A stretch of DNA of 59,183 bases, counting the filler, from Jimgerdemannia flammicorona (taxonomy: Eukaryota), in assembly GCA_003990765.1 (NCBI GenBank). It is 3 parts of 3 records of this genome, joined end to end, with 100 filler letters (N's around TTAATTAATTAA, not from the genome) between each part and the next. Parts side by side here need not be neighbours in the genome. Positions count along the whole stretch, not along the records: positions 19,762 to 39,422 come from RBNJ01001883.1; 2 more parts are not named here. The stretch is one strand, 5' to 3'. The notes under the pieces were generated by a model. The model did not search any database. It was not told the DNA's origin and was given only the letters and a program-made list of their open reading frames with translations. The first letter of the stretch is position 1. Every line of letters starts with the position of its first letter. Of the stretch, positions 11,051 through 48,600 are shown piece by piece. A program made the translations under genes and the position numbers.

Positions 11051-11053
11051 ACA

Positions 11054-24021: not shown

Positions 24022-26090
24022 GACTGAGATAGTTGCTCTCTCAAACTTAATGAAAATATCTTGGATCTATCTCAGAGGTATGGCCCTTGTACCATCTGCT
24101 GTGATAAACACCAGCTTGGTTATTTCTTCAATCTCTCAACTTAGGCAGTCTGCTGCTTTCTTGCTGAGGAGACATCCTCCTGCTCCTGTATCAATGATGG
24201 TCTTGAAGATTCTATCTTCAATCTGATAGGTTGTATAGACAGAGATCTTGCAATTGTCTTTGCTCTTTTCCCTTGAGTTTTCTTGAACATTACTGGCCTC
24301 AGTTATCTTCCAACCTTACTCCTTAGTTGTCTCAGTAAGTTTATATCTTATTTGTTATCTAAATGTGGGTATTTCTGCTAGCTGGCCAAAGGTTGTATTG
24401 AGCTTTTGTTGGCTGAGGTCCTTGAAGATGTCATACTTGAAGATGTTGATTTTGTAAAGCTTCTTCTCCTTTTCTTCTTTACTGGCTAGAATGGTTTCTC
24501 AAATAATATCTTGGATAGTCTGTTTTAGCTCTATATCTTGATCTATTTCTTCACCTTGACTTTCTGTAGCAGTCTTTATCTGCTTTTCCATAGAATTCTT
24601 TTTGGGTCTCTCTGATGGTCTCTTATAGAGTTGCTTGTAGATATCTTTCTTGATAGTCTTGATAGAGTAGGCTTTCTATTTCTCTTCATATAAGTAGTAG
24701 TCTTCTTCTCCATAAGTGTAGCAGGTACCTCTCTTCTTGTCTGAGATGGTAGCAAATTTCTGAACTGGGGGTAGTCTCTTCCTTTAATTTTCTTTACTAT
24801 ATCTTCTAGGTGGGCTATTATTTTGGTAAACTTCTTAGCAAGTTTCTCCATAGGGTCACTATTCTTCTACTGCTCAGTAGCTCTTAACTAAGGTGTGTTT
24901 CAATTGATTACTATAGTAGAGATCACACTGGTTATCTTAAGTGCTTTGATTTTAACTCCAGTGACTCTGTCTATTGTATAGTCTTGTGGGTGTCTGGCTA
25001 TTTAGTATTGCTGGACATAGGTAACCTTTTGTAGTAGATCTAAAACTATTGGTGAGGAGTGGATGGCTAGGACTATTTCTGGGTGAACTCCTTTCATGAA
25101 GGTTATCTTGGCTACTTAATCTCAGATGATATTAGTATAATCTGTAAAGATTATCTGATATCAGATTTTAGTATAGAATATATTTAGATCCTCACTCATT
25201 TCTTAGTAGATTATATATATTAAGTTGATTCTTCAGGGCTTGCTTGATCTCATCTATATAGTAAGTGGCTTGAAGCCAGGTCTTCTGTACTGCTAGTACT
25301 GTATTGTTATTATTTCCTATATGGGTTGCAGTTGTAAATATTACTCTTATTGGTCCTCAGAGACTGAAGGACATGAGAGCTACTTGCTGTATTGCTGTCA
25401 AGATTCTTACAGCAGTATACTACTCAAAATCATCAATGAAGATAATGATCAATTCATCTGAAGTATATCTGTAGAATACTAGTGGTCTCATATCCATCTT
25501 ATCTAGATGTCTTAATTCAATTTGTATAGTTGTTCAGATAGTAGTAATTGTTTGTTATTTAGTTTAAAAATGAGGAATTTGTCTTGAATCACCAACTAAT
25601 AGATACCAAGTTATAATATAGTAAATGCATAACTATAGAAGTATATTGGATTTCAGTATCTTAGAAACTTGATCTTCTTTGACTCTGCAGAGTCCTCAGA
25701 ATACAGGAGTAAGTAAGTTCAAAGTATATGTATCTATCTATAGGCTTACTAATTCTTTTACTTTCTCTTTACTTTGAACTATTTCAATCTGAGGTTTATT
25801 TACTCTAGATACTGGGATATTTATATAAGTTTGCTGGCTATAAGGTAGCTAAGTTATAACTATATTTTCTGTGAGTCATTTTCTACAAGTATAGATCCTC
25901 TATATCTGTAAAATATCTATAATCATAAAGATTCTACATCTGTAGAATTTCTATATTTGTAAAGTTTCTATATTTATAAAAATATAACTACTATTTATAA
26001 GACTATACTATATTTGAGAATCCGATTCAGGTACTGTAATCAAATGTCTATTCTTCTAATTTATATTACTAATTTGGATTAACTATCACA
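24022..26090 (-). mobile_element. Gypsy family B copy 1: 5' LTR (25612-26090), PBS, gag, protease; interrupted by LINE copy 2
   Basis: Homologous to 48360-50547; TGGT PBS at 25608 after a 3-nt ACT spacer; IIDTGAGG protease motif at ~24175-24200. Confidence 0.88.
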
Positions 26091-26290
26091 AAATATTAAT
26101 TTTAAACTATTTATAGAAAATACTATTCTATATAATATAAAAAATAAATAAATAAACAAATAATAAAGATTTAAGAATTTATTAGTTTACAGTTTATAAA
26201 TCTTAACCTTTAAGTTATATATTTAAAAATTAAAAAATATTTTTAAAAATAATTAGCTATAATACTACTCTCTTATTTCTTAATTAGTAT

Positions 26291-29200
26291 TGTAATATAG
26301 TGAATACCTAATCTTAAAAGTATAGCAGATTTTTGTATCTTAAACCTTAATCTTATTCTAACTCTCACAGAGTTCTCAGAGTATAGAGGTATAAGTTCAA
26401 AATACATATATCTACCTATAGACTTATTAGTTCTCTTATTTTCTCTTTACTTTAAACTATTTTAATCTGAGATTTATTTACTCTAAATACTGGAGATACA
26501 TATTTATATAAGTTTGCTAGCTATAAGATGACTAAGTTATATATAACTATGTTTTCCATAAGTCATTTTTTATAAGTATAGATCCTTAATATCTGTAAAA
26601 TTTTAATAATTATTAAAATTCAACATCTGTTAAATCTTGATATTTATGAAATAACTACTATTTATATAGCTATACTATATTTGGGGATTGGGTTTAGATA
26701 TTGTAATCAAATCTTTATTCTCTTGATTTATATTTCTAATTCAGATCAATTATCATAATTTCCTTCTAAATAAGTATTTTATCTCTGAAGTTCTCTATTC
26801 ACTCAAACTCTCAAACTTCTATAAGTTGTATCTCCTTGTACTATGTGATTTGTATTATTATATTCTCTCAATAGTATCTTTTGATATATCTAAAGTCTCC
26901 TAAGACTACTTCTCAGAAATGAGCTAGGATTGACTCATTATCTTTAAATAACCTATATATTCTTTTAGTAATAGTAATATAGATATAAGAGAGCTAATAC
27001 TATCTAATCTAGTTTTCTTTTCTCATTTCTTACTATGAATTCAATAACTATTCCAACTTGAAATATTTTTGAAACTCAGTCTAGTTCTAATAGATCTTGA
27101 AGTATGAGATTTATGATAAGTATATTTATACTATACATTGGATACTATTGAAGAATTTCTCTATTGTAAGTAGCTCAGTAGTATACCATTATCTTTCTAT
27201 AGCTCATTGGATAGTACAGATAATCTTGAGAGCTATGGTAGTACTTTATTAAAAAGCCATAATACTTCTTTAGTTAGTTTTAGTAAAGATGATTATATCT
27301 GAGAGTTTTTATAGCCAAAAGGTAGTTTCTTTTATGTCTTATACAGATAAGATCCTTTCTACTTAGATTTCAATTTTTATAATCATGAGACTTCTATTAT
27401 ATTCCAATATACCAGAACTTTATCTTTTATCTTAATAATTTCTAAAGATTTATAAATCTTTTCTATATTATTCTACTGTAGAACTTGTATCCTAATTATA
27501 TAATTTCCAGTCTTTTTTCTGATTTGGTATAGTCTCTGTATCTCTATATTTATATATTTCTATATAATATCTTTATTAGATAATAAAGTTTCTTGAGAAC
27601 TTTTTTCTCCAAAGAGCATTTCTTATAGAGCAAAATAAGTACTTTGTAATTGAATATTCTGAAGAGCAGATAATGCTGTTAACAGATAGTGGTCTCAATT
27701 TTCATAGTTATTATAGATCTTAATAATAATATTCTTGAGAGTCTTGTTTGTCTTTTTTAATTATCTATTTTCTTAAGAGTAATAGACTATACTCCAAATA
27801 TATTGAATCTTGTACTTCTTGCAGAGAACCTCAAAGAACTAGTTCACAAATTCTGCTCCTCTGTCTGTAGTTACTTGTATTGAGGTCTTAAATTGACAGA
27901 TGATTTCTTTGTAAAAGAAATTGATAATTGACTATATATTTACTTTCTTGAGGAGTTCTGCTTCTACCTATTTTGTAAAAAGATCTATAATGATAATGAT
28001 ATATCAGTTATCAGTTAAAGTCAAGGGTAGAGGGCCAATTATATTTATTGTAATATATATAACTAGTTCTATATATACTAATCCTGTAGTCTGATTTCAT
28101 TTTTTTTTTTTTTAATAAACTCAGAGTTCTGTAAATTTTATTAGAAGAGAACCTAGACTATATAGGCCAAAACTCTCCCTCACCACCTACTGGACATTAT
28201 TCTTCTATTAACTTAGACTACTGAATTGTTCTACAGTCTTACTATTCCTACTATATACATATATCAGATATGCCAACTCCCACTATATAGACTAGACTTG
28301 TCTATTCACCAGAGCTGAATTATCATAACTATATATGAGAGCACACCTATACATCAGATCTAGTAATACTAGGACTGAATAAAGAATAGTCTTCTGAAAT
28401 CTAAACAAAGATCTAAGACAAAGAAAAACCCTCCAACTAGCCAATAGAAGACAGAATAGATTCAGAGTAGATAAGTAAAGAACTTATATAGAATCTCCTC
28501 AAAAGGACTGATATATGGGCTAAGACTTAAAAAAGCCCCACTCTTACTCTCTGAGCCTATAGACATCTGTATCAGCTCCCAGTTCTAGTCAGGTACTACT
28601 AAATGAGAGAGATCCCACTCTCCAAGCCTGTGGGTCTTAATTGTGTTACCACATCAGCTCTTAGTTCTAGTTGAATATAGCCAGGATACTGGCCTCTGTA
28701 TCACCCCACTCTCTGCTAGTCAATCAAAAGGCCCCACCAAGATAATGCCTGCCCTAACCCCAATGACTGTCCCCAGCCTAGTACCCTACTAGTCTATCAT
28801 TATCACTCTTCTGTCTATCTGTAACAGCCATCTCCCCTTCCATTCCAATACTATCTGAAAAACAGTTACCTATATCAGAACTACACTCACTAAGAAGCTC
28901 GCCAAAGCTCAGAGAGCCCCACCACAGATACTGAGGACCTGCAGGTAATCTATACTAGTACTTAATGCCCAAGATCAGCTAACTCCATACATATCCCATA
29001 ATATACCAGATGATATCTTGTAGATGATAGTAAAAAAAAAAAAGTACTATACTAAAATAAATATACTTCAGATATAGCTAAAGGAATTAGAAACTGTAAA
29101 AAAGTGAAAAAGACACTAATCTAATACTAATAAAGAGATAACTCAACACTATTACCTCTCTCTCACTATGCTCTTGCAGGTACAGCAAACTAACTCAAGA

Positions 29201-29922: not shown

Positions 29923-31357
29923 TTATACAGGAAAAGAATGCTGGCATAATTCAGTATAACCAAGCAGAAAGTTCAGGACCATAGGGGCTTCATCTTCATC
30001 AGAGGTCAGGATGTCTTTGAAGGAGATGAGATCTATGAATGTTTCATCTGTCTCTTCATCATCACATAGGTCATGTGTTTCATGTATGTCATGTATGTTG
30101 TGCAGGATGATGTCATCACTAGTGCTCCGAACGAGTCAATCCGGATGGGATTCGGATGGATTCGAATCAACCATTGTTTTGATTTCCAAATTAGACAAGT
30201 AAATGTTTGCATCAATAACTCGATGAATAATCATCCAAATTTGATGATCTTAGAGTCATTTGAAAGCCCTTAATAAGGCCTTTCTAATGATACCAAGAAC
30301 ATTAAAATCGGATCATGTGTTGCTGAGTTATGAAGGAAACCGTGTGAATCACCAATTTTGGAAATTTCATCAAATAGAACGTTTTCCTTAATATCTCGAC
30401 AACACGTAATCCGATTTTAATGTTCTTGGTATCATTAGAAAGGCCTTATTATGGGCCTTCAAATGACACTAAGATCATCAAATTTGGATGATTATTCATC
30501 GAGTTATTGATGTAAACATTTAATTGTCTAATTTGGAAATCAAAACAATGGTTGATTCGAATCCATCCAGATGGGATTCGAATCCCATCCAAGTTGATCC
30601 AGATGGGATTCAATCCAAATCAATCCAAATCCAATCTGGATTAAATTGACTTGTTAGGAGTACTAGTCATCACCAATGATATCATCATGTTCAGCAGTGG
30701 CAGGAACAAGGAGGTCTGGAGCTCTCCAGTCTATGAGGTTCTCTTCTATGAAACAGGAGATAAATGTGGGGTCTTGGGGAGGTCTGACCTAGATGCTGGG
30801 GCCTTGGAATACTGAGATCAATCTTTGCAGGAATTGATCTGGGTTGTCTTGGAGGATAGGATGCTAGAAGTCTTCTACTTCATCACTATTGAGGGTGATA
30901 GTGGATTGGGCTTCTGTAGTCACTCTGGCTTCTAGTATATTGATATGGCAGGCTGATAGATCTCTGAAGTCTGAGACTCTAACATACTCTAAGTTGGGGA
31001 TCAACTATAGTACATACCTGAAGATCTGATGAATCTTCTTAGCTATCCTTGTTTCACATATATCTATGGAAGTGGTATCTTATAACTCTTGAGGGCTGGC
31101 CTGTGGGAACTCCCAGCAAAGAAGGTTTCTTATTTTTACTCCTGCTACATTTGGAGATATTTGGTAGCAATGGTGATCCTTGTTTCTATTTCATAGCAGT
31201 AGAGAATAAAGTGATAAGGATCCATAGTACCTAGGTTGAGGCTAGGAGTCCTTCTTGTATAGATCCTTATGACTCTTCTGATGTCTTGGAACATTCTTTC
31301 TTCAACTGAGATACCTTGGTGGTTCCTTGACCTTGAGGTTTGGTGAGCAGTAGGCAT
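29923..31357 (-). pseudogene. Family C LTR-embedded accessory ORF, split by a MITE
   Basis: MPTAHQ...YCYEIETRI...RIAKKIHQIF...IPNLEYVRVSDFRDL...QDNPDQFLQRLISVF...DDEETDETF; frame is restored across the MITE when it and one TSD are removed; diverged homolog at ~52760-53390. Confidence 0.7.
30120..30665. mobile_element. hAT-type MITE/foldback element (546 bp)
   Basis: Termini TAGTGCTCC...GGAGTACTA; perfect 8-bp TSD GTCATCAC (30112-30119, 30666-30673); ~200-bp near-perfect inverted arms; subterminal GGAT/ATCC repeats; no transposase. Confidence 0.9.
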
Positions 31358-32825: not shown

Positions 32826-35800
32826 ACTCCCCCCATCTTTCTCTGGTACCATTCAGGTTACACAACCTTCGGAAGGCACTTATAACATCATTTTTAGAGA
32901 AAAGAGACTAACAACATGGCAACCAACAGGTAATCTGAGGTATGTACTTGGCAGAGTGGCCCAAGCACTTTCAAATAGCAGCAGGTGGGGAGGGGCCCAG
33001 GCCTGGGGGGGGGCATGAGGGAGCTGCTGGCAGGAGGATACGGAAGAGGTGGAGGTATTGGTGGCAGACAAGGGTCTGGGAGAGCAAGCTTTGCAGAGAT
33101 GGTGAAGGGGAGGCAGCAGGTGTCAGGGCTGGAGGGCTGGCTGAGGAGGGGCAAGGAGACTGAGAAGGTGGTGGTGCATGGTGGAGCAGCCCTTGAAAAG
33201 GAGGGCAGTGGAGCTGGGGGAGTAGTGGCTAGAGAGAGTGTGACTGCTGATGGCAACAGGACTGCTAATCTGGAAAAAAATCCAGATGTGATGGCTGTTA
33301 GTGAGGCTGAGCAGATGAGGCTTGAAAGACAAGGAGATTTGGCAGATGGCGTGATGGGCCTGGTGGTGGCCCTGTTACTCAAAAAATCAATCTCGGCATT
33401 TGTAGTTACACTGTGCTTCCAGGGCTTAGTAGTGACAGTGAAAATAGTGCTGGGGCTTATTGCTAAGCAGGTGGCAGGAGCGGTATCAGTGAAGTTTTTA
33501 AAGAGACTGGAGAGTGTAGAGGTGGGCTTTGAGGAGGCAGAGCCACTGGAGGAGGCATTGAAGGTTAGATTGGTGGTTGGCAAGGTGTGTGTTCTGATAG
33601 CAAGGTGTCTGAAATGGGATCCAAGGGTGATCCAACTGCTGGTGAAAGGAGTGCCCATGGTGATGGCGATAGAGATGAGAAAGAGAGTTGAGGATGTCAT
33701 GGCAGAGTATGGCGAGGTGGTGAATATCAGATTCAGGGTCTGGGAAGGGACCTCGCTCAGAACTGAGGATGTAGATGTGAGGATTCAGCTGGCTGGGAAA
33801 GATGCTACTGGGAAGGCAAGGGACTGGCCTTCAGTGATAGTCTGGAGAGCGATCTTGTGTAAGGTGATAAGGATAAAAGGAAGTAAAGAGGAGGAAGAGA
33901 ATTTATTAGAAGCACTGGAAGAATTGGATGGTACCATGGAGCAGCATGCAAAGGCTTGGAAGGCTTCATAGAGTTGATGCACCTGGAGGTGGTGGATGGA
34001 AAGAGGATTTGAGTGGACAAGATGCAGTGGAAAAGGGCTCAGAGGTATAAGAGATAGAAGGATCTGCTGGCTAAACTGAGGAACAGACCACAGGAGGATG
34101 TGAGTAATATGATGGGTGCAGAAGGGACCAAAGTAAGTGACTGGGCTAGTGAGAGGAGTGGGAATGCTAGGGAGGAGACAGGGAAGGCAAAGGAGGTGAA
34201 GATTATTAACCCATATGCTGATGGCACCTTGGAGGTTTGGGAGGAGGTCTGGAAGGATTCCCCCACTCCTTCTCCTCTTATCAGGTGAGGCCTAGCTTCC
34301 AGAAACAAGATGGTGGAGGACATGACAATACTGGAGACCCATCAGGTGAAATTCAGCATTCCAGAGGTGATGGGTAGGAGACATGTGGTGGCTGCTGGGG
34401 AGGAGGAACTAGTGGATGTCCCAGAGGTATGGGATGAGACTGTGAGTGCTAGAGCTGACACTATAATACTGGATGGAGAGAGGCCAGCAACCCCTGGAGG
34501 GAAGGAGGTGGGGAACCTACTTTGGATGTGCAGGATGATGAATAACCTGGTAGCAGAAGAGTTAGGAGAGGTGGACTTGCGAGTGATGGGTGATGAGCAC
34601 TGGGCATGGATTTTGTAAGGGGATGGAGTGATGATGGCACTGAAGATGGAAATTCTCATAGTGTATCTGGAGGAGGAAGGATATGAGGTGGACAAGGAGC
34701 GGGAGATAGAGATGGTAGTTGTTGCTGGGGAGAGGGCTGAGTACTGTTGGAACAAGCATCATAGATTGCAGCTTTGGCAGGAGGCTTACATTGAGTACTG
34801 GGAGGAGTTTGAGAAGAAGGCAGATGGGGAGATGAATGAGCTATTGGCTGGATTGGAGGCTCAGAGGGCTGAAGAGGAGGAGGTGATGGCAGAACATAAT
34901 CTAGACATAGCACAGGAGGAGATAAGCATGGAGCAGTAGAGATTGACTGATAAAAAATCATATTTCATTATGAACAGTACAACCAACATTTTTTCTATGA
35001 ATGTGAATGGGCTACGGGGTGCTGTTAGACATAGGAATATTTTTATTTGGCTAAAGGGATTGGAGGCCGATCTCTTCCTCTTACAGGATATTAGGTGCGA
35101 GAATGACTCTGATAGGTTGGAATGGACAAAGGAATGAGGTGGTATGGTAATTTGGAATGGCAAGGTTGGGATTCTGGTTCAGAAAGGCAGAGGGGAGATA
35201 AGAGATATGAGGAGTTGGTGGGAGAGGCTGGTCTGGGGTGAATGGATTCGTGCAGGCTGGGAGCCAGTTATAGTTGGATCCTGTTACTGTTCTGCCATAA
35301 GGGGGGAGCATATAGATTGGGTGAAGGGTCTCCAGGAGAGTGGAATCCTGGCAGAGGCTGGAGTAGATATGCTTGGGGGAGATTTCAATATGGTTCGAGA
35401 TGTACAGAAGGATAGAACTGATGAAGGTTGAGGTGCTAAGAGTCAGAGTGGGGGGCTGGCGATGTGGGAGGAAGTTGAAAGACTAGGAGCACTGGTAAAT
35501 GCTGGTAGAGAGTACTGGGGGGATAGGAGGGTATATATGCATTGGGCTGGAGGCCTGGGGACAAGGATCGACTGGGTTCTGATAGCCAACTGTTGGGGCC
35601 ATGATGTTTGAAAGTTGCTGGAGGTGGAATAGTGTCCATGGTCAGATCACTGGAGCCTTTTGGGACAGGGGTGCTTTGGGGGAAGTAGGGATGGGCCTGG
35701 ACATTGGCGCCTAAATTCCTTCTTGTTAGATGATGGGTCTCAGTGGGAGGAGTAGGCTAAAGACATTCAGCTGAGGGTGGAGAACTGATGGCAGAAAGGT

Positions 35801-37879
35801 GTCTCAATTGGGGTTCAGTAGATGAGGATAAAAGAGATGGCCAGGATGTACTGGAGTGAGGCTGGCAAGGTGGTGAGAAAGCAGTAATAGCAGAGAGTGC
35901 ACTGGGCTTCTACTAAATTGGCTAGGCTTCTGGAGGAGTGGACAAGATTGGCGATGGTGGAGGGAGAAGAGGATTGGAGAGTAATGAGGGCAAAGATGGA
36001 GGTTGGGAAACTATAACAGATGCTGTGGGAAGAGGAAGAGGCAAGGGTGCAAAGCTTGGTAGCATGGCTTCATTGGTAGGGGCTGGAGGAAGGGAAAAAG
36101 TCTTCCAAGTTTCTCATGAGGACTCTTAGGGTGAGAAGGATATAGCAATGATTGGAAGGGGTATTTGACTCAGATGGTGTACTAGTGCATGGTGTACAGG
36201 ATATTTTTGGATCACTGAAGGAGTGATGGAGTGGATTGTGGAGTGAGGAGGAGGGTGGGGTGGATGCTACTGCCATTGACCGAATATTGGAGAATTGGCA
36301 CTCATCATAAGTTATGGGACTAGATGATCTGGTAATACCTGTAAAGGAGGATGAGGTCCACCAGGTTCTTGCCATGACAGCCTCAGGTATAGTACCTGGG
36401 GAGGATGGCCTACCCTGGGACTTCTGGAAGTAAATGGTTGGAGTCTCAGGTGTGATAGGAGAGTTGATGGCATTGTGTGACTCTATATTGCAGACAGGAA
36501 GATGGGTGGGAGAGCAGGATCTTGGGCTGGTGACACTGCTTTATAAGAACAAAGGAAGGTGAGAGGACTGGAAGAACTGGCAGTCAATAATGTTGCTAGA
36601 TATGGACAGAAAGTTAGTGACTAAGAAGGCTACAGAAGATAGCCCAGCAAGTTGTAGGGGTTGAGCAGAGGGGATTTGTGGGTGGTCGGCTTATTAGAGA
36701 TGGCACAGCCTGGGTACATAGAGTTATTGAAGGGGCTAGAGCATGTCAACTGGATGGGCAACTAGTCTTCTTAGACCAGAAGAAGGCTTATGACTGAGTG
36801 CGATGAGTCTGGCTGGTGAAAGTATTGGATAGAATGGGGGTTCCAATCCAATTTCGGTCAGCAATGATCAGCCTACTGGAAGAGAGTAGGGCTGCACTCA
36901 TGTATAATGGGCATAGAGGGGTAGTATTCCCTCTGGGTAGGGGGGTGCCCCAGGGGGACCCACTGTCCCCCATCTTGTATGCACTTTCCCTAGAACCCCT
37001 AATGGATAGAATTAGGCAGAAGATAGTAGGGCTCTCTATCTATAGCATTGGGTGGAAAGTTGGGGCCTTTGCAGATGATATGGTGGTTGGTCTGGGATCG
37101 ATTGCTGATGTGGAGGAGCTCAAGAAGACAGTGGAGTGATATGAGGAGAACTCTGAGATGAAGCTGAATTGGTACAAGTGTGAAACAATAGTGCTAAACA
37201 ATGGCCTTGTAGGAGGAGAAGTTATAGGAACAATTGTCCCCACTGGTGAGGCAGTGCAGTACTTGGGTATCTATTTGTCAGTCTATGGATCAGTTCTGCC
37301 CAGGCTTTGGTGGGAGCAGCGAATTGGAATTTGGGAGGAGGACCTGTGGGGTTGGAGGGGAAGACACTTTTCTCTGGTGGGACGGGTCTTGATTTTGAAT
37401 GTATATTGGCTGCTGAAGCTGTAGTATTTGGCTTATCATCTAGACTTCCCGGCCTGGGTAGTGAAGAGATTAGTGAAGGTGGCCAAAGAATGGATTTGGG
37501 CTGGCAGATAGAGCCAGATTGGTTGGGAGACCTTGTCCCTACTGGTGGCGAGAGGTGGTCTTGGGCTGGTGGACTTTCCCAAATAACTACACTGCTTGAG
37601 GGCATGGTGACTTAAGAGAGTGATGGAGTTGCGAGGAGAGAGTTGGGTTCCCCTGCTGCAGAAGGTCTGAGAGAGGCAATCATCACTGAGAGGCTCCACT
37701 GGTGATCTTCTCTCTTTGGTTGAAATTCAAAACACTGCACAATTGCAATATAGAGGCTTCTGGTGGGAGATAGTGGAGGGGGTACACCACATTGGTATTC
37801 GCTGGCAGGGGAATAAGGGAGAGGAGGCTTGGGACCTGGCAATGTGGAGATGGGATAGCATACTACTAGGCAGCATGCC
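32826..37879 (+). mobile_element. LINE copy 3 (5' UTR, ORF1 32916-34939, ORF2 from 34970), interrupted at 37880 by a family A LTR
   Basis: Conserved 5' motif CTTTCTCTGGTACCATTCAGGTTACACAA; MNSTTNIFSMNVNGL; GVPQGDPLSP; FADD; many nonsense transitions. Confidence 0.95.
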
Positions 37880-37896
37880 TGTAAGCGCACAACCTC

Positions 37897-37991
37897 CAAG
37901 CCACTGAAATTACACGTCACCCTCTGAACAAGCCACTGAAATTACACGTCACCCTCTGAACAAGCCACTGAAATCACACGCGACCTCTGAA
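37897..37991 (+). repeat. Three tandem ~32-bp repeats at LTR start (U3 enhancer-like)
   Basis: CAAGCCACTGAAATTACACGTCACCCTCTGAA at 37897 and 37929, variant at 37961. Confidence 0.9.
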
Positions 37992-38199
37992 CAAATCTGG
38001 AAATCACCTGCTTGATCACGAAGCTGAGTCAAACCAAAGTCACAGTGCACAAAGCTGAGTCAATACGAAGTCACGGAACACAAGATCTACACAAACGGAA
38101 CCTTACCAATCAGGACCAAATGCATATATACTGAGCACCGAGACGCGTCGAATCAGAGAACCAAAACAAACAACAACCACAACTTCCAAACACACAAAT

Positions 38200-39297
38200 A
38201 TGACCACTGAGATCTACAACCGCATCCGCGCTGACATTTGGAATGCCATTGTCAATCGAGCCACACCCCCTCTGCCCCTCATGAATATCCATAGCCTGGC
38301 CCCCCTCTACTTTGTGGAAGCCCGATGGAATGCCCTGAACATGCTTAGCGAGGCCCACCAAATCGGACAAATCTCAAGCTACTACCAGATCAGCCGCCTC
38401 CTGGAAGACATGGTCGAACACCACCACAATACAGACATGACCCAGATGTCTCAACACTAGAAGCTCATCACCCGCAAACATCAAGAACTCTTCTACGAGT
38501 ACAACACCTTTATTCCCCACCTCCGAGTTACTACTAGCGAAATGGTTGCTACCCTGTCCTATAGCCAAATCGATGACATGATATAAGAAATCAACCACAA
38601 GTACCTCGAGTATGTTGAAACCACAGACAGAACCTTCCCGCACCCTGATGACCACATCCTGCAAATGCCTCAAGTCGGATATGCCATGAAGGACATCTAT
38701 GATATAATCCACTTCGATGAAGACGAAGCAGAAGACAATGATCCCTCCGACGCCGACATGACCTCTAGCCAAGGATCTCTGCCAACCCTGATCACTCCGC
38801 CAATCTTGCCAATGAACTTACAACAGTTCATAACTGTATACAAGACTTATTGGGACAATGACCACTGGCACGAATACCAATCTGTGTTCACCCCCGATTA
38901 CTTCAACTACAATGAAGAGACCGGAGAACACAACCTGTACCTCCAGACAACTCTCGAGATTGAACCAACCACTCCACCACCCGAGTACGAGCGACTTGAA
39001 TCACAGCTGCCAGCTTACTACAACCCCGCGACTCATAGTGCTGTAACCTATAGAAGGTACGCAGATAGTGAATCCGATGAAAGCGAAGACAATACACCCA
39101 TCCTTCGCCCACCAACACCTTATCCAGCATACGAGACAGATGATGCTATCCTGTGGGATGGTGACGAAGTCCCAATGTATTACTACCTCAGCCAACAAGG
39201 AGAAGTAATCCGCGAACCATTATTCCTAGACGACTACTTCATCAGAGATGATGCAATCGATGGTGATGTCATCGAGGAATACCCAGACAGTGCCTAA
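38200..39297 (+). pseudogene. LTR(U3)-embedded accessory ORF, 365 codons, near-intact; product unknown
   Basis: ATG 38200 to TAA 39295-39297 in one frame; only two stops (CAG>TAG 38458, CAA>TAA 38584), both Gln in the 18745-19661 copy. Confidence 0.88.
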
Positions 39298-39422
39298 ACC
39301 TATAAATAGTCTAGCAGTCATAGTATAGATAGATTAGCCTTGTACGACGTGACTGTGAACTGACTCAGCAGTCAGACGATCTCTTGACATGTCAGATCAC
39401 ACTTGTACTACGTGACTGCATT

Positions 39423-39522
39423 NNNNNNNNNNNNNNNNNNNNNNNNNNNNNNNNNNNNNNNNNNNNTTAATTAATTAANNNNNNNNNNNNNNNNNNNNNN
39501 NNNNNNNNNNNNNNNNNNNNNN
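39423..39522. other. Artificial contig linker (N44-TTAATTAATTAA-N44)
   Basis: Identical to the linker at 19662-19761. Confidence 0.97.
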
Positions 39523-41150
39523 TTTTTTTTTTTGTCATTGGTTATCTCAACTAAGCAAATGGGACAATAAATTCGGAACGTGGATTCGCCTCACAATTTT
39601 CACTAACATGCGCACTTGCCACTCTCGATCTTCATACACATTCTTGCCTTCCTCATCGACAGACCAAATACGCTCGGCTGACCATCTCCGAAAAACCACA
39701 TGCCGAAAACGTCTCACCGCGTTTGTTCCACAATCCAATTCCTACACAACCCCGAGCTGGTATTGGCCGACCCCGACCAACATCTTCGTACCTGGTGCAC
39801 CAATTTTTTTTCAACAAACGTGCCTGCCATGCAAACGTACCAAATTGACCACGCTGATTAAGGTGTCATTTTTCTATGAAGTGTATATGATGTGGAGATT
39901 GGTCTCGTTGTCAAAGTGGTGCATTCCGAACGCTGGTGTAAGAAAGAAACGGGTACGTAGTGCACGAAACGCAACGTGTAATCCATCGTAGGCTTACTCA
40001 TGCCGCGTATATTATGTGTGTCGAAACAAACAACCCTTCCCTCAAGTGGACTTTTAGGGACGATAGAGATCCCATATAGTAACTTTACAACCATGAGTAC
40101 ATGCATCAAACGTCATGTGGTAGCTGATTGCTAATGCCAATTAAAAGAATACGCCCATCACTGATGAGATTTCAAAACCATGAGGACAATAATTGATTTC
40201 GCCAAAGTAAGGTTACTATTTTCTATCTCCTATGCTCGCTACTTTCCAGAACCTCATGGTCATTCCTTTTTCCCACCGCGCTGCCATCACTTAACGTATC
40301 AGCGCATCAACATGAAATTGCTCCCCTGTTACCGGCTTCGTATGAATCCATAGAATAAATATTTCGTCTCCGTTCACCGGGGTTAAAGTTCGACTTAGCG
40401 CGACGTCACATGTACACATGTAACTGTTCTGAAGTTTGTATGCATGTTGTGTAAAATCGAAAATGGACCGACCAAGTTTCCGGTTGAACATGGTATTGAA
40501 TTGAAAGTATGCGGTTGTGGGAAAGGTACACGCATGAAGGATGGAGCAAGTTCGTGTAAGCCGAGGCTCTGCAATATTTTATTTTATTTTTCCCCTTCCG
40601 ACAGTAAGTACGAAACACGTGTAAAAAACGAGGTTCCAAATGATAGAGACGGGAGAAAGGCATTTTCCCACGCCACAGGAATATGCCCACCCTGTCTCAA
40701 CCATTGCGGTGTAACATTCATTATTCCAATGAGACGTAGCCGATTTTTGCTATTTAGTGCTAAGCGAAGCTTACCAATCAATACCGAGCCACAATTACTT
40801 TTGAATGAGGCTGTGACATTGTCGTCGGGCTGTGGGTGTAGAAGTTCCGATTCGGGCCTGCGTTGTAGACAGTCGCAACGGACTGGCTTGGCCATGTCGG
40901 GGGATTCTTTCTCCAGGATACACTGTAAGTATGCAGGGTGTGTTTACTGGACTCGTCCAGGACCTCCGGGATTTAGATGGCCCGACCGACGCATTCCAAA
41001 ATCGCCCCGTTGTGACATACATCAAAAATTAAAAAAAAAAAATCCCAAAAGTGTCCTTGGTACGCCAGGCGATCATAATATTTGCCGAGCACCAGTGGTC
41101 GATCGTATGTTCAACTATTGGTTCATAATTTCAGGGGTTGATTAGGAAAT

Positions 41151-41407
41151 TAGATCTCCGCAAACAGACCCGATCCGGAGTTTAGACCCAGTCCGTCAAA
41201 CGTTCATATCCCGACGAAATGGCGCCCGAATTTAATGATCATTAGCTCGTTGTATCCGCCTTGCAAGGGGAATATAACAAGTTGCGGGCCAATAAATTTG
41301 GACGTCATTTAATCGAGATACAATGCGTTTGACAGGCCGGGTCTAAACTCGGGTCTGGATAATCTTTTCCTGGGTCCAGTCGGGTCGGATCTGTTTGCGG
41401 AGCTCTA
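41151..41407. mobile_element. hAT-type MITE (257 bp)
   Basis: TIRs TAGATCTCCGCAAACAGACCCGA / TCGGATCTGTTTGCGGAGCTCTA; inner inverted block GAGTTTAGACCC...GTCAAACG; flanks TAGGAAAT/ATGGAAAT (6/8 TSD match). Confidence 0.82.
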
Positions 41408-42253
41408 ATGGAAATAGACTTCATTCCACGTTGATAAAATATCTTGTAAAGCGCAGTGTCTGAGCCTCGTTCATTGGACACGCTCTATATCTGAATTAGG
41501 ATGTGGACCGATTTTGGCCTCTATTCACCATGTGACACCATCGTCCACGCTGTTTTTACTTTAAACCCTTCCGGAGCTGGGCCAAGAACGCTTACCATAA
41601 ATATTTTCTCCCGCGTCGACCACGAGGGAACGCTCGTTTCGGGTATTACATAAATGATGACCTAAATTTACTAAATTTGGCGAGGCCCTGCACTTTATCA
41701 CTCGTTAGCAATATTATATGGTTCAGGTAAACGAGTTTCACCAACAACCGAATAAGAAATATCCGCGTACTCCGCGAAGAGAATTGCCTTTGATTTTTTT
41801 CCTTTTTTTTATTTTTTCATGGGCTAGGGCGACCAAAGAATCTACGAGTTGTATCCGCGCTTCTGCCATCTAGATGTTTACCCATGCCACCCCTCTCCTC
41901 ACTTCACCCTTTCACCCCCTGAGAGCGACGACCACCAATATTCCAACCACGCTGCTTTCCCACCCCTACCCCGACTTCCGGGGTTGACGTGACCAACGCT
42001 ATAAGCAAATGCCGATCCTAAATAAGGTTCTCCAATGCGCTTTCTAAGTGAACCCAGTTCTCCAGACTTTTTGGTCTCGTGGTTTTATTTTATTTTCCTA
42101 TCTTTACACCAAATTTTAATTGTTTGTCGCATACAGTCTACGTCATAGGAGTTCCAACCATATAAACACTTTCCCAGTCTGATTGAAACAACTTAAAATC
42201 AAACTCAAATCCATCCATTGTATATCGTAGCCCAATCTTTCAGCCAATCCGAT

Positions 42254-42613
42254 ATTGGCAACATATTCTCCCGCCGTCGTGTCTCAAAACGTCGGTCCCG
42301 CGCACCTCCTGAAGATGAAGTAACCCGTCTTAGCTCTATGATGGAGGTGTACGGTGTATTCATTATACGCTTCATCCAAATGATCCACGACCGCATCTTG
42401 GTGAAGAATCGTAAACGCTAGGGCAGCTTTGTGGTGTTCGATTTATGGTTCCCGAACTCCGAGCCGGAGAGACTAGTGGCGACCACGGCAAAAGGCCCAG
42501 CGGATAGTAAGAATCGAAAGGAGATGTTGAAGAAACTCAAACCCGTGGAGTGCAGCGCCTGGAATCGCCTTTCACAATTAATAACATTCGCATTTACAGG
42601 ACGGCGAATCTAA
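42254..42613 (+). pseudogene. Small unknown ORF, copy 1 (start codon lost, one in-frame TAG, 3' end replaced)
   Basis: IGNIFSRRRVSKRR...PPEDEV...VYGVFIIRFIQMIHD...PERLVATTAKGPADSKNRKEMLKKLK; inverted homolog at 42958-43366; TATAAA at ~42161. Confidence 0.55.
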
Positions 42614-42729
42614 AACCACACCACGTGACTTATTTTCTGTTGCAATACCAAAATTTAACTAGATACACACTAGGCTAGAACCTTAATCAAGCTACCATTT
42701 GCCCTGTGAGACTGCAACAAACTCTGCTG

Positions 42730-42731
<2 letters not shown>

Positions 42732-42764
<33 letters not shown>

Positions 42765-42766
42765 CA

Positions 42767-42807
<41 letters not shown>
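42732..42807 (-). repeat. Long poly(A) tract on the minus strand (tail-like)
   Basis: Two T runs split by CACC; AATAAA on minus strand at ~42862-42867. Confidence 0.8.
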
Positions 42808-42811
<4 letters not shown>

Positions 42812-42957
42812 CACTTCGATTGAGTTTTGAGTTTATATTTTCATATTTCTTGAAGGAAAGGTTTATTATGCCAGAACTTAAAAATCCTGAAGGGGAGGCT
42901 AACTGGCTTTTTTTTTATTATTATTTCATTTGAGATATCTTTTAAAAAACTCCCATT

Positions 42958-43366
42958 TCAATTTTCTTCCATCATCTCAATCGTCGTTAGTTCCAACTTG
43001 AATCTTTCGAACTCCGCTTCGGTCACGTCAAAGCGCTCATCAACGAGACCCCAAAAAATTGTCCAGTTCAGGCGATTACATTCTCTGGACTCTACGGACT
43101 TGAGTTTCTTCAATATCTCCTTTCGATTCTTACTGTCCGCGGGATCTTTTGCCGTCGCCGCCACCAGCCTCTCCGGCTTCGAGTTCGAGAAACCTGCCCC
43201 GACGTTTTTGTTTCTTCAGCTGGACATTGTCGTGGATTATCTGGATAAAGCGCACAATGAACACACCGTACACCCCCATTATAGGGTGAATGCGGGATAC
43301 TTTATCTTCAGGGGGTTCGCAGAATCAACGTTTTGAGGCACGACGGCGAGAAAATGTGTTGCCCAT
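42958..43366 (-). pseudogene. Small unknown ORF, copy 2 (starts MGNTFSRRRASKR; stop and frameshifts)
   Basis: Homologous to 42254-42613; TATA-like box ~75 nt upstream; 3' UTR with AATAAA and poly(A). Confidence 0.55.
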
Positions 43367-44619
43367 GTTGGATTTGCTGAAAGGACAGGGTTAAGTGTAA
43401 AATGATGGATTCAAGTTGTTTCAGACTAGACTGGAAGGGTTTATATAGTTGGACATTTTTAGTCTGTGAATCCTTGAATGATCCTCTAGATTCAAAACTA
43501 TGAATAGGGTAACCTTTATTTGCGGGGACAACCCCCAATTTTACAAAATATATTAAAATATATTATTCATGCAATTCACTGGACCCCAAGTTCAAGTACA
43601 CAAAATGGTTGAATGGGATCGATTACCTTGAGAAATATTGCGAATGATCTTCGTATTGCTTGATGAACTTCACTGCTGTGCAATCAATTATTATCACAAG
43701 CAACCAGAGATATGTGCTTGTTCCTTGTTTCAAGCACTTGGTGTGTAAAGCACATGGGTATTTGACTACAGAATTTTCACTAGACCAAACACGACTATTA
43801 GGAAAGAAACCCGAATCTAGTGTTGAAGGCATCATAAACAGCTTGCAATCTAAGGCTATTATCCAAGATAGATGAATACAAAATTCACGTCGCTGTTAGG
43901 CCAAGCACACCATTTTCCAATATTTGCCAGACTGTCTGCCCACAATAAATAATGTAAATAAAATCAGATGGTTTATTCGCTTCCATGTATTAGTTATACA
44001 TAACTATGTTCCCTACATAAATATCCACCGTGCTAGACAATTCTAAAGCATTCAAGCAAATGCCAGTAGACATGTCAATATTTTGGATATATTGTAATGT
44101 AGTGGACATGTAACTGTGGAAGTATGTCAGATTTCTGTATCTTGGAAACTTGATCTTCTTTGACTCTGCAGAGTTCTCAGGATGTAGAGGTGGGTGAGTT
44201 CAAAGTGTATCTGCCCACAGGCTTACTAGTTCCTTTACTTTCTCTTTGTTTTGGACTATTTCAATCTGAGGTTTATTCACTCTAGATACTGAGGTATTTA
44301 TACAAGTTTGCTAGCTATAAGATGGCTAAGTTATGACTATGTTTTCTGTGAATCACTTTTTATAAGTGTTTAATCTTTTAACATCTACTAGAACTTTGAT
44401 TATTGCTAAAAGTTTAACATCTGCAAAATCTTCAATATCTGCAAAGAGTTTAACATTTGTGAAAACTTTAACAGTTGTAGAATAATAATGACTACTATTT
44501 ATAAGACTATACTATATCAGAAATTGGATTCAGATACTATGATCAAATATTTAATTCCCCTGATTTAGGTTCCTAATTCAGATCAACCATCACAACTTCT
44601 TCCTGAATAGGTGATTTAT

Positions 44620-45110
44620 TCCTGAAATATTCTATTCAAACTCCCAAGCTTTTATGATTTATATCTTCTTATACTATATAATTTGTATCATTATATACTC
44701 TCAGTGGTATGTATCTCTTGATATATCCAAAGTTTCCTGGGACTACTCTATGAAGATGGGCTGGAGCTGGCTCATTATCTTTGAATATCTTGTTGACTTA
44801 TTTGGTAATTGTGATCTGAGCATAAGAGAGCTGACACTCTCTAATCCAGTCTTCTTTTCCTATATCTTGCCCCAAGTTTAGTAGCTATTCCAACTTGAAG
44901 TATTCTTGAAACTCAGTTCAGTTCTAGTATACTTTAAAGTGTGAGATTTGTGACAAGTGTGTCTGGACTATACTCTATATACTGTCAAAGGATTCTTCTA
45001 TAGTTGGTGGCTCAATAGTGCACCATTGTCTTTCTATGGCTTACTATATAGTATCAATAATCTTGAGGGCTGTGGCAGTACTCTATTGATTGGCCATAAT
45101 ACTTCTTGAG
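44620..45110 (-). pseudogene. Family B post-integrase accessory ORF
   Basis: QEYFKLE*LLN...ITITK*VNKIFKDNEPAPAHLHRV; second copy ~26880-27075 reads KYFKLE...ITKRIYRLFKDNE; boundaries approximate. Confidence 0.6.
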
Positions 45111-45119
45111 TCAGTTTTA

Positions 45120-48100
45120 GTAAATGATTGTATCTGAGAGTTTTCATAGCCAAAAGATAGTTCCTTTTATATCTTGCACCAGATAAGGTTTTCATGACCA
45201 TGAAGCTTCTACCATATTCCAATATACCAGAACTTTGTCTCCTATCTTGATAATCTCTAGGGGCTTGTAAATCTTTTCCATATTATTCCATTATAGTGTC
45301 TGTATCTTGGTTATGTAATTCTTGGCCTTCTTTCTGATTTAGTATAGTCTTCATATCTCTATGTCTATATGTTTCCATACAGTATCTCTATTAGATGATA
45401 GAGTTCCTTTGAGAACTTTCTTCTCTGAACAGCATCTCTCAAGGGATGAAATAAGTACTTTGTGATCAGATATCCTGAAGAGCAGATAATGCTATTGATT
45501 AATAGTAATCCCAATTTTCATAGTTATCACAGTTCTTAGTAATGATATTCTTGAGAGTCTCATTGGTCCTTTCTACTTGTTCATTTCCTTAAGAGTGGTA
45601 TACTGTAGTCTAAATGTACTGGATCTTGTTTCTGTTTCTGACATTTGTCACAGATCTTGATAAATTGTCTGATTTCTTCCTTTATTTCTAACTACTATAT
45701 TGTTCTTCTTGCTTTATCATATGTGTTTGTTCCTCTTAGATAGCCAAGTTCATGTACTGATTTCATTGCTTACTCCTTCTTATATTTGGATATGACTAGT
45801 AGTTTTCCTTTCTTTAATGTTTCTCTATCAGTCTTGAATTATTTCTATGTTCTGTTGATAATTATTTGTGTCCATTCTTTCAGATATTGGGGCATCTTTC
45901 ACTGTCTCAGATAGGTGATGATTCCATAGTAGAGCTCCTTATTCATAATTGATTTGCTGGTTAGAGGTCCTTTGGAGTATCTGTGAGAGGGCATCTATAT
46001 TGACATTGATTCTTCCTAGATAGTACACAATAGTTATATCATAGGCTTGCAATATTATGATCCATCTAACATAGATTCCTTTGGATTGCCTGGTGGTCAG
46101 TAGTCAAGTGAGGGCTAAGTGGTTCATCTGAATAGTGAAGTATCTTTCTACTAGATAGTAGTGAAACTTCTCTATAGCCTAGATGACTGTAAGACATTCT
46201 AACTTATAGGATTTATACTCTTTTTTAGCTTCTCAGGTTCCTTGGCTGAGATATACAATGATATATTCTACCTTGTCTTTCTTCTGGACCAGGACTGCTC
46301 CTAGTCCTTGAGTACTTACATCTGTCTGCAGGATGATTTCTTAAGTCCAATTGGGTCTTCTGAGGATAGGTACCTGGGTCAGTCTGACCTTAAGTTCATC
46401 AAATATTTTATTGTCTGCCAGTCTATTGGAACTTGATATTCTTTTTGTTGTGTTTGTAAATTGGGCCTGTGATATTAGAGAATCCTCTAATAAATCTTTA
46501 GTAGTAGGAGGCAAGTCCTATAAAGGCTTGGGCTTCAGGAACTGTAGTGGGCCTTGGGTATAACTACTGCTTGAATCTTGAGGGAGTCTGTGTGTATTCC
46601 ATCTCAATTGATAACATGGCTAAGATAAAAGATCTTGATTTCTACAAACTTGTACTTTTTGGACTTGATGTAAAGACTATGCTGTCTTAGCTTCTCTATT
46701 ATCTACTAGATGTGCTGTAGATATTCTTCAGCTGTCTTGCTGCAGATAATAACATCATCCACATAAACCATTATCTATCTTCTCATATCATAGTGGAAGA
46801 TTTTGTTCATCATTCACTGAAAGCTTGCAGGGGTATTGCACATTCTGAATAGTATTCACAGATAGATATAAGTTCTATCTGGGGTGATGAAGGCTCACTT
46901 TTCACTTGCTACTTCAGTGAGGCTGATTTGGTAGAATTCTGAGTATAAGTCCAAGATGCTGTAGTATTATGCTTCATCTTCCAAGGTTAAAAGGATGTCA
47001 CTGATGAGGGGTAATAGTTGGTGATCTTTCTTGGTAATCAGGTTGAGCTTCCTGTAATTAGTGCAGAGTCTTGGGGTGAATTCTCCTGGCTTGCTTTCTT
47101 TTTTTAGGGCTAGTACAATTGGTAAAGCCCAGGGGCTGCTGACTTCTTTAATGATACTGACTTCTTCCATCTGTTTGATTTCTTCTCTGAGCCATTCATA
47201 GTAGGCTAGTGATATTGGTCTTGTGTTTTGATAGACTGGTTCTATGTCTTCTATGTCTATATCATAATAGTAGTGTGGGATCTTTCCTTTGATATCCTTG
47301 AAATCCATAGCTAGAACATCCTCAAATTTATAGAGTATCTTCTTAAGTTCCTTCTTGAGTAGGAATTCATTTTCAATAGTATAGCTATACTTGTTCACAG
47401 TTTTCTCCTTTTTGTGATCCAGTTCAGTGATCTTGGTACTGGCAAATACTCCTCTTCCTATGGATCTGAATTCTTTCCTTTCTCTTTCCATTTCCTCCAA
47501 CTTCTTGACTTCTATAATCCTTGGCTGAAGAACTGAGAAGATCAATATCTGTACTAGTTAGTCCTTCTTCTTGATTGGAAATGGAATCATAGGATTGTAG
47601 TTTCTAGCAATAAGTAGTATTTCTCCAATATAATCTAAATCAATAACTTCTCCTTTAATTGTGATTTCACTTCTAGTCAGGCTGCTTCTTGTCTTGAGGA
47701 TTCTGATATAGTCCTTTGGAATGGTTATTTCCAGATTAGTTACAAGTAGGGTGGTTGTCTGGGGCTCTAGTATAGTTTCTTCTACTGTGACAATATCTAT
47801 TCTAGCTGCATTCTCTGACTTATATTCTGGTAAAACTACATCAGAGTGGATCCTCTGAATCTTGACCTTGATTTCTTCTTCATCATCACTGTTCTCTAGG
47901 AGGGCTGGTGGTTCATCATCCTTTTCCTCCTCCTCCTCTTCTCTTGTCTGCTTTTCAAGAGCCTTTTGTCTTCTTTTCTGGTAGATCTTTCTGATGTCAA
48001 TACTATATTGATAACAGTCATTGATGTACTTACTACAGTATATCTTGATTCCATAGAGGCAGACTCCTTGTGGTATATATCCTTTTGCAATCTTCTTGCA

Positions 48101-48600
48101 CTAGTCTCCTTCACTGATCTATCTGACTTTCTTCTTCTTTTTCTCAGTAGTCACCATATAGGCTTCTTCTTGCTCACTTTCTTCTTTCTCTATCTCAGGC
48201 AGCACTCCTTTGTTGACATTAATGAGAATTCATATCTTCTGGTCTCAGTAGATGATCTGCATCTTCTGGGCATTCAGATCAATTATTGCCTTAGCTTTAT
48301 GAAGCCACTGATTGCTGATGAGAATATTGTAATTAGTGGCATTGATCACAATCACATCTACTGAAATAGTTGCTCTCCCAAACTTGATGGAAACATCTCA
48401 GATATTTCTCAGAGATGTGGCTCTTATTCTATCTACTGTGACAAACACTAGCTTGATTGCATCTTCAACCTCCCAATCTAGACAGTCTACTGCTTTCTTA
48501 CTGAGAAGACATCCTTCTGCTCTTGTGTCAATGATGGCCTCAAAGATTCTATCTTCAATCTGACAGATTGTATAGATAGAGGTCTTGCAATTGTCTTTAC
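45120..48600 (-). pseudogene. pol: Family B pol remnant (PR, dUTPase, RT, RNase H, integrase with core deletion near 45630)
   Basis: ORF-track 46967-47545 (RT N-terminal part); CDKCQK zinc finger is joined directly to the YHS*GNEQVER region. Confidence 0.88.
47456..47880 (-). pseudogene. dut: Trimeric dUTPase domain between protease and RT (family B)
   Basis: AA(R<G)IDI, TRSSL, EVIDLDYIG, LVQI, ERERKEFRSIG (G>A-decayed RGxxGFGSTG). Confidence 0.85.

Follow-up and report, generated by a model that had tools for sequence, protein, structure and literature searches.

A Free-Standing Gene Within the LTR of a Ty3/Gypsy Element of Jimgerdemannia flammicorona and Its Probable Distant Kinship with Integrase Tails

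We describe a protein-coding gene that lies wholly within the long terminal repeat (LTR) carried by a Ty3/gypsy-type retrotransposon, here called element A, in a stretch of 59,183 nt from the genome of Jimgerdemannia flammicorona (GCA_003990765.1); this whole stretch is referred to below as the window. The open reading frame (ORF) concerned, A-ORF, occupies positions 38200–39297 on the plus strand (365 codons and a stop, beginning with its own ATG) in the LTR copy A3, and the simplest reading of the motifs around it places it in U3, the 5′ portion of the LTR. We consider it probable, without great confidence, that the helical N-terminal part of its product (about 130 residues) is a distant homologue of an extension that follows the integrase in chromodomain-less elements of lineages B and D and probably also C. 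The reading as a whole, in which a free-standing U3 gene has distant homology to integrase tails, has in our judgment a little better than an even chance of being correct. The window consists of three pieces of 19,661 bp, joined at 19662–19761 and 39423–39522 by 44 N, 12 nt and 44 N; the 12 joint bases give stops in all three frames, and features adjacent across the joints are not genomic neighbors.

A Protein-Coding Gene and Its Product

A-ORF is a true protein-coding gene and not a chance ORF, because the differences between its copies show an excess at third codon positions and because it is conserved in a diverged relative. Between the LTR copies A3 and A4, the differences at codon positions 1, 2, and 3 number 14, 6, and 37 (chi-square p = 1.2e-6), and the changed codons comprise 32 synonymous and 21 non-synonymous cases; the corresponding numbers for A2 and A4 are 52, 30, and 72 (p = 1.8e-4). 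The LTR part behind the ORF, used as a control, gave 25, 34, and 31 (p = 0.5). The diverged relative is a metagenomic protein of 247 aa (P0001), which has 65% identity to A-ORF over 247 aa and a C-terminus identical in position. A second protein (P0002, 128 aa) is almost identical to A-ORF, shares its start and is free of stops. These two were the only true relatives when the A profile was searched against 1.84 billion representatives, where three matches were obtained; the search with the A4 ORF at near lengths gave one match among 99 candidates. The third match, P0003 (436 aa, with 68-aa tandem repeats), was rejected. Its match to the ORF segment TLSYGQIDDMIQEINHKY (33% identity over 36 aa, 6 repeats, E = 2.6e-5 library-wide) is an artefact of summing over repeats: P0003 also "matches" 24 unrelated Pfam families, and no single stretch of it passes.

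The product appears to have two parts. For residues 1–128, AlphaFold2 (AF2) predicted five helices with low confidence (mean predicted local distance difference test, pLDDT, 55.5), and the isoelectric point (pI) of this N-terminal domain is 6.1. Behind it lie 229 residues of acidic composition (51 D+E; pI 4.05) that abound in aromatic side chains (31 Y/W/F) and in proline (23 P); the whole protein has 65 D+E in 363 residues.

The stretch first flagged by the first-pass annotation, 38360–38600 on the plus strand, corresponds to predicted helices 3–5 of the N-terminal domain. Translated in frame with the ATG at 38200, it reads SSYYQISRLLEDMVEHHHNTDMTQMSQH, a stop, KLITRKHQELFYEYNTFIPHL and, farther on, DDMI, a stop and EINHK, and its conserved blocks are SSYYQIS (38374–38394), KLITRKHQELF (38461–38493), and FIPHL (38509–38523). 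The lineage A string quoted for this place, SSYYQIGRLL, KLIARKHRELF, and FIPRL, is a genuine one, since it is found exactly in A4 (19659–19633, 19575–19543, and 19527–19513, minus strand) and in P0002, but it is not the sequence of 38360–38600, where four residues differ and two in-frame stops are present. These are TAG at 38458–38460 and TAA at 38584–38586, and they are the two in-frame stops of the A3 copy of A-ORF.

Element A and the Probable Placement of the Gene in U3

The complete element A extends over 6946–17573 on the plus strand and was delimited by its LTR pair, target-site duplication (TSD), polypurine tract and domains. Its two LTRs (A1, 6946–9026; A2, 15542–17573) have 85% identity and a length of about 2.05 kb, and the 5-bp TSD, TAAAT, is repeated in the flanks. 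The LTR termini are TGTAAG and CTTACA; the TGTAAG start was read in the least-decayed copy, and the 3′ end, CTCTTACA, is common to A1, A2, and A4, beyond which the sequences diverge. A polypurine tract at 15521–15540 (plus strand; run AAGAAGGGGAGAG) lies immediately 5′ of the 3′ LTR, and directly 3′ of the 5′ LTR stands TAGTAGCAG, which we take to resemble a tRNA primer-binding site. On the plus strand the element also encodes a dUTPase (11162–11434, E = 6.9e-16), the zinc-finger and SH3 domains of the integrase (13700–14899; Integrase_H2C2, E = 1.4e-12; SH3_Tf2-1, E = 4e-15) and a chromodomain (PF00385, 14948–15094, E = 7.1e-6, 26.3 bits versus a cut-off of 25.1). With an integrase followed by a chromodomain, it belongs to the Ty3/gypsy chromoviruses. 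Both of its LTRs contain decayed copies of the ORF, starting at 7242 and 15806.

Two further LTR copies are cut by the ends of window pieces. A3 (37880–39422, plus strand) starts with TGTAAG and ends with its piece at 39422. The best-preserved copy, A4 (18065–19661, minus strand), ends with its piece at 19661; its part of the ORF, 19659–18745 on the minus strand, has a single stop at 18888–18886. A3 and A4 have 93.6% identity across 38375–39422. The LTR opens with tandem units of about 32 bp, read directly from the sequence (37898–37990, plus strand in A3), which look like an enhancer-type pattern. Such units occur also in 6946–7100 and 15542–15650, and A3 holds one more of them than A1 and A2.

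A-ORF starts about 300 bp inside the LTR of about 2.05 kb and ends about 700 bp before the LTR end. Read-through from Pol into the ORF was considered, the two being in the same frame class, and was rejected: 17 stops lie between the chromodomain and the ORF in the complete element A (on the A2 side), and four stops lie in the ORF frame upstream of the ATG in the A3 LTR (37882–38199). Since these stops are present even in the well-preserved A3, A-ORF is a free-standing gene and not a continuation of Pol. A CCAAT motif (38106–38110) and a TATATA motif (38125–38130), both on the plus strand, precede the ATG by 70–95 bp and are conserved in each of the three LTR copies covering the site (A1, A2, and A3), from which we infer a putative CCAAT/TATA promoter belonging to the ORF itself.

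On the 3′ side of the ORF, two TATAAATA boxes are followed, about 115 bp past the second, by AATAAA, and all of these are kept in A1, A2, and A4. In A4 the boxes lie at 18741–18734 and 18555–18548 and AATAAA at 18431–18426, on the minus strand. The simplest reading of these motifs is that U3 would begin with the LTR and extend about 30 bp beyond the second TATAAATA, with the ORF included, that R would be about 110 nt and that U5 would be the final 345 nt or so of the LTR. The putative promoter of the genomic RNA (the second TATAAATA) and the putative poly(A) signal would then both lie 3′ of the ORF, and the ORF would therefore be present once on the RNA genome, behind the integrase, the chromodomain, and the polypurine tract. 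That the lineage A sequence lies within an LTR, as had been claimed for it, is thus borne out by the LTR pair, TSD, polypurine tract, and termini, and the positions of the motifs point to U3.

Integrase Tails of Lineages D, B, and C

In lineage D, integrase and tail occupy a single frame with five stops at 4092–5444 on the plus strand, and integrase homology ends by query residue ~332 at the latest. The tail (4950–5444) has no chromodomain, contains QAYYTIGEQL (5106–5135) and TAADRLYTIY (5202–5231) and ends with an acidic run. The variants listed within this tail for the sequencing runs X1 (a soil metagenome) and X2 number eight, two of them synonymous, with one 3-base insertion in the acidic run.

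Lineage B is represented by an element on the minus strand at 44092–50548, with a dUTPase at 47561–48100 and a 3′ LTR of about 500 bp at 44092–44595, and by fragments at 24023–28057. The tail of copy B1 (44597–45004, minus strand) exactly fills the space that separates the end of the integrase from the 3′ LTR, and that of copy B2 (26760–27167, minus strand) is in frame with the integrase and adjoins a 3′ LTR at 26290–26758; the B tail ends seven codons into the LTR. The motifs of interest are at 44888–44908 and 44774–44797 in B1 and at 27051–27071 and 26946–26972 in B2. The differences between B1 and B2 at the three codon positions are 40, 22, and 38 (p = 0.054), and the B LTR control gave p = 0.84. 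In both B and D, the segment of similarity comes immediately behind the integrase, as the first-pass annotation claimed, and it is in the Pol frame; this C-terminal sequence is not a chromodomain.

Lineage C has a truncated integrase at 32852–32000 and the domain at 30735–31136, about 270 codons past the integrase in another frame, both on the minus strand. A C-like copy of the domain (53004–53410, minus strand) adjoins, on its upstream side, the 5′ end of a non-LTR element (53403–53410), and in a purine/pyrimidine-collapsed comparison C and C-like are shared only over 30723–31138 and 52996–53410. Their differences at codon positions in the proposed frame are 54, 34, and 65 (p = 0.008), a periodicity of the kind seen in coding sequence. 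No second C LTR was found in the window, and the placement of this domain in a "C-LTR" is so far a candidate only. An acidic, aromatic-rich tail follows the helical part in the cases from every lineage.

By direct reading of the sequence, the motifs of D, B, and C-like (the last at 53280–53306 and 53262–53276, minus strand) were located as previously claimed. Those of C (31020–31049 and 30990–31004, minus strand) were also found, but YCYEIETRI (31175–31201) is in a frame different from that of RIAKKIHQIF, and the pattern proposed as common to the lineages fails there; the in-frame counterpart of the first motif is LLCWEF (31107–31124).

The integrases of B and C have 52–62% identity and those of C and D about 40% in tblastx comparisons, and A is more distant. 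The four lineages spoken of earlier are therefore A, D, and a related pair, B and C. Because of the same identities, vertical descent suffices to explain the presence of the domain in B, C, and D, and the idea that it had moved between the post-integrase position and U3 is not needed for them; only for A versus the others must the domain have been relocated or the LTR boundary have shifted.

Is the Similarity Between Lineages Real?

In a first leave-one-out trial, the segments of the first-pass annotation itself were used; the outcome was positive but circular, and this trial was replaced by one with training sets defined by annotation, namely the N-terminal 188 aa of A-ORF, the whole gap between integrase and LTR in B, and the sequence from the integrase end to the stop in D. 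Profiles were searched against the six-frame translation of the entire window, and ranks were counted among non-self matches. Training with A and B placed C-like at rank 1, D at 2 and C at 4 (323 non-self matches). Training with A and D placed B2 at 1, C-like at 2, B1 at 3 and C at 5 (300 matches), and training with B and D placed C-like at 1, A3 at 2 and C at 4 (296 matches). When A, B, and D were all used, C-like (E = 0.076) and C (E = 0.31) took ranks 1 and 2 of 277. With the full 365-position A profile alone, the D tail took the top place among 281 non-self matches.

We also shuffled the columns of the training alignments, by which composition and conservation are kept and order is lost. 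The observed score was reached in 0 of 45 shuffles for D, 2 of 45 for B, and 1 of 60 for A. For C it was reached in none of the shuffles with A+B+D (60), A+B (45), and A+D (45) and in 1 of 60 with B+D, and for C-like in 0 of 60 (A+B+D), 0 of 45 (A+B), 1 of 45 (A+D), and 1 of 60 (B+D). The best hhalign alignments of all six lineage pairs share one register, and in the MAFFT alignment residue 1 of A-ORF is matched with the residues that open the B and D tails; the module start therefore coincides with the integrase end. Similarity at the profile level thus appears to be above chance, though modestly so, and it is on this that the probable homology stated at the outset is based.

A rival explanation, which we regard as a substantial though minority possibility, is that there is no shared domain. 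A-ORF would then be a U3 orphan peculiar to its lineage, the tails of B, C, and D would be unrelated, fast-evolving extensions of Pol, and their likeness would come from amphipathic helices and acidic stretches in AT-biased, transition-decayed sequences from which segments had been picked by eye. Many results weigh on this side and against homology. In Smith-Waterman comparisons, only 3 of the 23 inter-lineage pairs had scores reached by at most 1 of 300 shuffles, and for 16 of the 23 the score was attained by no fewer than 25 of the 300. The pairwise hhalign comparison that had been proposed as a check went against a common domain, the six lineage pairs having P values of 0.32, 0.032, 0.052, 0.0094, 0.049, and 0.15 and probabilities of 0.2–4.4%, figures that come from small per-lineage alignments. 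A codon score allowing for C-to-T and G-to-A decay gave no gain over BLOSUM, and all three of these approaches therefore remain at noise level. Cross-lineage profile scores of 3–8 bits are not above the top matches in the reversed database (4.8–9.2 bits). Reversed profiles still placed C-like at ranks 1–5 and A at ranks 9–13, so that composition or helical periodicity accounts for part of what is seen with C-like and A. Furthermore, the C segments had been picked by the first-pass annotation. Adding the other lineages to the AF2 input lowered pLDDT from 55.5 to 53.2 and the predicted template modelling score (pTM) from 0.49 to 0.35.

A bridging sequence from outside the window was not found in the profile and integrase-tail searches, and this too counts against a shared domain. 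The query with D integrase and tail gave, at longer lengths, 158 matches, which were to the integrase only; among the 120 listed relatives of the D integrase, query coverage was at most 73%, and the best-covering one stops short of the first block. The four-lineage profile gave no match at E ≤ 10 among 7999 longer candidates. Two co-linear motifs farther downstream, TYxxYWDxD and YxNYN (for D, the latter is in a different frame), were noticed only by eye; the profile missed them, and they were left unused.

Against the explanation without a shared domain stand the annotation-defined profiles, which rank left-out tails 1–2 of about 300, the composition-keeping column shuffles, beaten in 43–60 of 45–60, and the common register with the module start at the integrase end. 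With reversed profiles, moreover, the remaining lineages lose their high places, the ranks becoming 118 for D, 21 and 52 for B, and 25–77 for C. The claim of a domain common to four lineages accordingly stands in so far as left-out tails take the top profile ranks and beat most shuffles, and it fails at the level of pairwise and hhalign comparisons.

Possible Roles of the Module

If the homology is accepted, one module would be present in A, B, D, and probably C, composed of a helical domain and an acidic, aromatic-rich, disordered tail. By analogy with other elements, the B and D forms, at the usual place of the chromodomain, would tether the integrase to chromatin or to a host partner, and in lineage A, which keeps its chromodomain, the LTR gene would provide the module in trans. 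This role as a tethering or targeting domain, comparable to a chromodomain or to the LTR-encoded CR motif discussed below, is offered tentatively, and it may well be wrong; a second targeting module is less obviously needed in a lineage that already has a chromodomain.

The main rival to this role, to which we give about the same modest weight as to the bolder proposal described next, is that the module is real but is a regulatory accessory protein, such as an LTR transactivator or an RNA-handling factor, and that the B and D forms are freed from Pol by a protease. Retroviruses have accessory genes at their 3′ end or in U3, such as sag of mouse mammary tumor virus (MMTV), tas of foamy viruses, and pX of human T-lymphotropic virus (HTLV), and an acidic, aromatic-rich composition like that of the C-terminal 229 residues resembles that of activation domains. 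The free-standing state of A-ORF with its promoter-like motifs and the presence of a chromodomain that already serves targeting in element A point in the same direction. Against this, neither Pfam nor PDB profiles gave a match to a DNA- or RNA-binding family, the N-terminal domain is not basic, as its pI indicates, and three lineages fuse the module where targeting domains sit.

The bolder proposal, an improbable one in our estimate, is that the LTR itself is a gene: each family A LTR, solo LTRs included, would be a promoter–ORF–poly(A) unit making a trans-acting module, and a tethering or host factor once coupled to Pol would have separated from it and come to lie in U3. If this were true, the factor would be doubled at both ends of the element and could be expressed without transposition.

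Searches for a Known Domain

The domain had been called uncharacterised, and this description holds, no characterised family having been matched in Pfam, PDB, Foldseek, or the ESM Atlas. Eight tail and ORF sequences searched against Pfam at E ≤ 10 had no family common to the lineages, and none of the eight matched Chromo (PF00385) at that threshold. Neither env nor any other family was found for A-ORF in the Pfam searches of window ORFs and of tail and ORF sequences. The best matches among PDB sequence profiles (E = 0.14–0.17) were to unrelated proteins. Foldseek gave a best E of 0.43, which has little weight because the query was a low-confidence AF2 model, and the ESM Atlas gave no usable match (the families returned at 0.93 were unrelated, and recognition did not attain the threshold). 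Locus scans of metagenome contigs (two) and of viral contigs yielded no relative.

SH3 and integrase C-terminal models did not detect the decayed ends of D, B2, and C, and the low sensitivity expected with decayed sequences could in principle conceal a known domain diverged past recognition (a degenerate chromodomain, gag-like or env-like), but this is very improbable, since the intact P0002, A4, and P0001 also match nothing in the same searches and the AF2 models of the ORF and tails, though of low confidence, contain helices only, unlike the three-stranded sheet and helix of a chromodomain.

Comparison with Known Systems

LTR retrotransposons have few accessory genes, most of them without an explanation, and the choice of integration sites by gypsy elements that lack a chromodomain is poorly understood.

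The CR motif, or putative targeting domain, of the plant centromeric (CRM) chromoviruses is a non-chromodomain C-terminus of the integrase, encoded by the 3′ LTR through run-in of Pol, variable among families and held to direct integration (PMC3059260). Like it, the B and D tails occupy the place of the chromodomain at the integrase C-terminus. Unlike it, the LTR ORF of lineage A is separate, with its own ATG, and element A keeps a chromodomain; in addition, CRM elements are plant elements, whereas the window repeats are present in metagenome runs from soil and roots. The CR motif and the modules of the window are likened here by position and description, and not by sequence.

Additional ORFs in sense orientation (sense aORFs) of LTR retrotransposons are for the most part env-like and situated ahead of the LTR (PMC7264820). 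They share with the present case an extra sense 3′ coding region that is found in most copies of a family and has no determined function. The module of the window differs in its location, within the LTR or joined to Pol, and the family searches found no env-like features in it; an aORF inside an LTR is not mentioned in the available part of that paper. In bdelloid rotifers, ORF3 types, some accompanied by a dUTPase, are shared by unrelated retroelement lineages (PMC5408684), and the resemblance lies in one accessory module occurring with different retroelement lineages through modular gene sharing. The rotifer ORF3 products are a GDSL esterase, a DEDDy exonuclease, and a fusion glycoprotein, whereas the module of the window matches nothing and its sharing is only probable. 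Fungal chromoviruses have a dUTPase at variable positions, and some are drawn with an "additional ORF with unknown function" (PMC2864245, legend of Figure 3). Element A, as a chromodomain-carrying gypsy element with a dUTPase and an extra ORF, resembles these, a likeness drawn from the legend only. The element Boty has an antisense brtn (10.1101/2021.04.13.439636).

A comparable layout is that of a vertebrate retrovirus. In MMTV, sag is a superantigen ORF that fills most of the U3 of a long LTR. A-ORF would similarly occupy most of U3, so that each LTR of the DNA would contain it and the RNA would have it at the 3′ end. A-ORF is not from a vertebrate retrovirus and the superantigen function of sag is a different one; the two are likened by layout.

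We found no description of an ORF within a retrotransposon LTR in the open-access literature. Extra 3′ ORFs are already known; as far as we have checked, the sequence family of A-ORF and its free-standing layout in U3 are new. An orphan gene under selection that lies wholly in U3 would be an unusual layout for a retrotransposon and would make every LTR a potential coding unit. If the homology is true, a new family of integrase-tail modules would exist in both fused and free forms, allowing action in cis to be tested against action in trans. The main limits on this significance are that the copies are decayed and that nothing outside this repeat family connects the lineages.

Other Features of the Window

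All three pieces are filled with nested, decayed retroelements, as indicated by self-comparison and by Pfam searches of 76 stop-free ORFs, among which only RVT_1, rve, rve_3, dUTPase, and DCD were found. The differences between copies are predominantly transitions, in both directions, and the minimum GC content in the window is locally 0.24.

A dUTPase is present in two gypsy lineages, in A (11162–11434, plus strand) together with a chromodomain and in B (47561–48100, minus strand) without one. A dUTPase inside some fungal gypsy elements has already been described (PMC2864245).

Among the public sequencing runs listed for the window sequence, none was of RNA. Contigs of X1 and X2 span 30 of the 30 bins of 4000–7300. 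Because the pieces are many, short and diverged, the D-type element and the A LTR start are multi-copy where they are present.

Four non-LTR elements with RVT_1 (best E = 1.7e-24) were recognized by Pfam and self-comparison. One runs from 1 to about 3990 on the plus strand with a 3′ poly(A) run, and this long poly(A) end sits within the RNase H/integrase region of lineage D. Another extends from 19764 to about 24000 on the minus strand, and two of the long interspersed nuclear element (LINE) type, at 32838–37855 and 53403–58407 on the plus strand, adjoin the C and C-like copies, respectively. The sense strands of the non-LTR elements are strikingly G-rich (GC skew +0.33 to +0.5), whereas the gypsy sense strands are rich in A and C instead. 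The first 220 bp or so of the non-LTR element are present three times, at 17844–18065, 32836–33057, and 53403–53622. At two loci the non-LTR 5′ end meets a C-type gypsy fragment of the opposite strand, once in the integrase and once in the tail domain, and these two junctions may reflect segmental duplication and deletion instead of two insertions.

The stretch 39523–44090 (plus strand) contains ORFs of 170, 248, and 160 aa (39479–39988, 40399–41142, and 42854–43333) that have no Pfam match. Inside the same stretch lies an inverted repeat, 42153–42570 and 43453–43070, with 73% identity between its arms.

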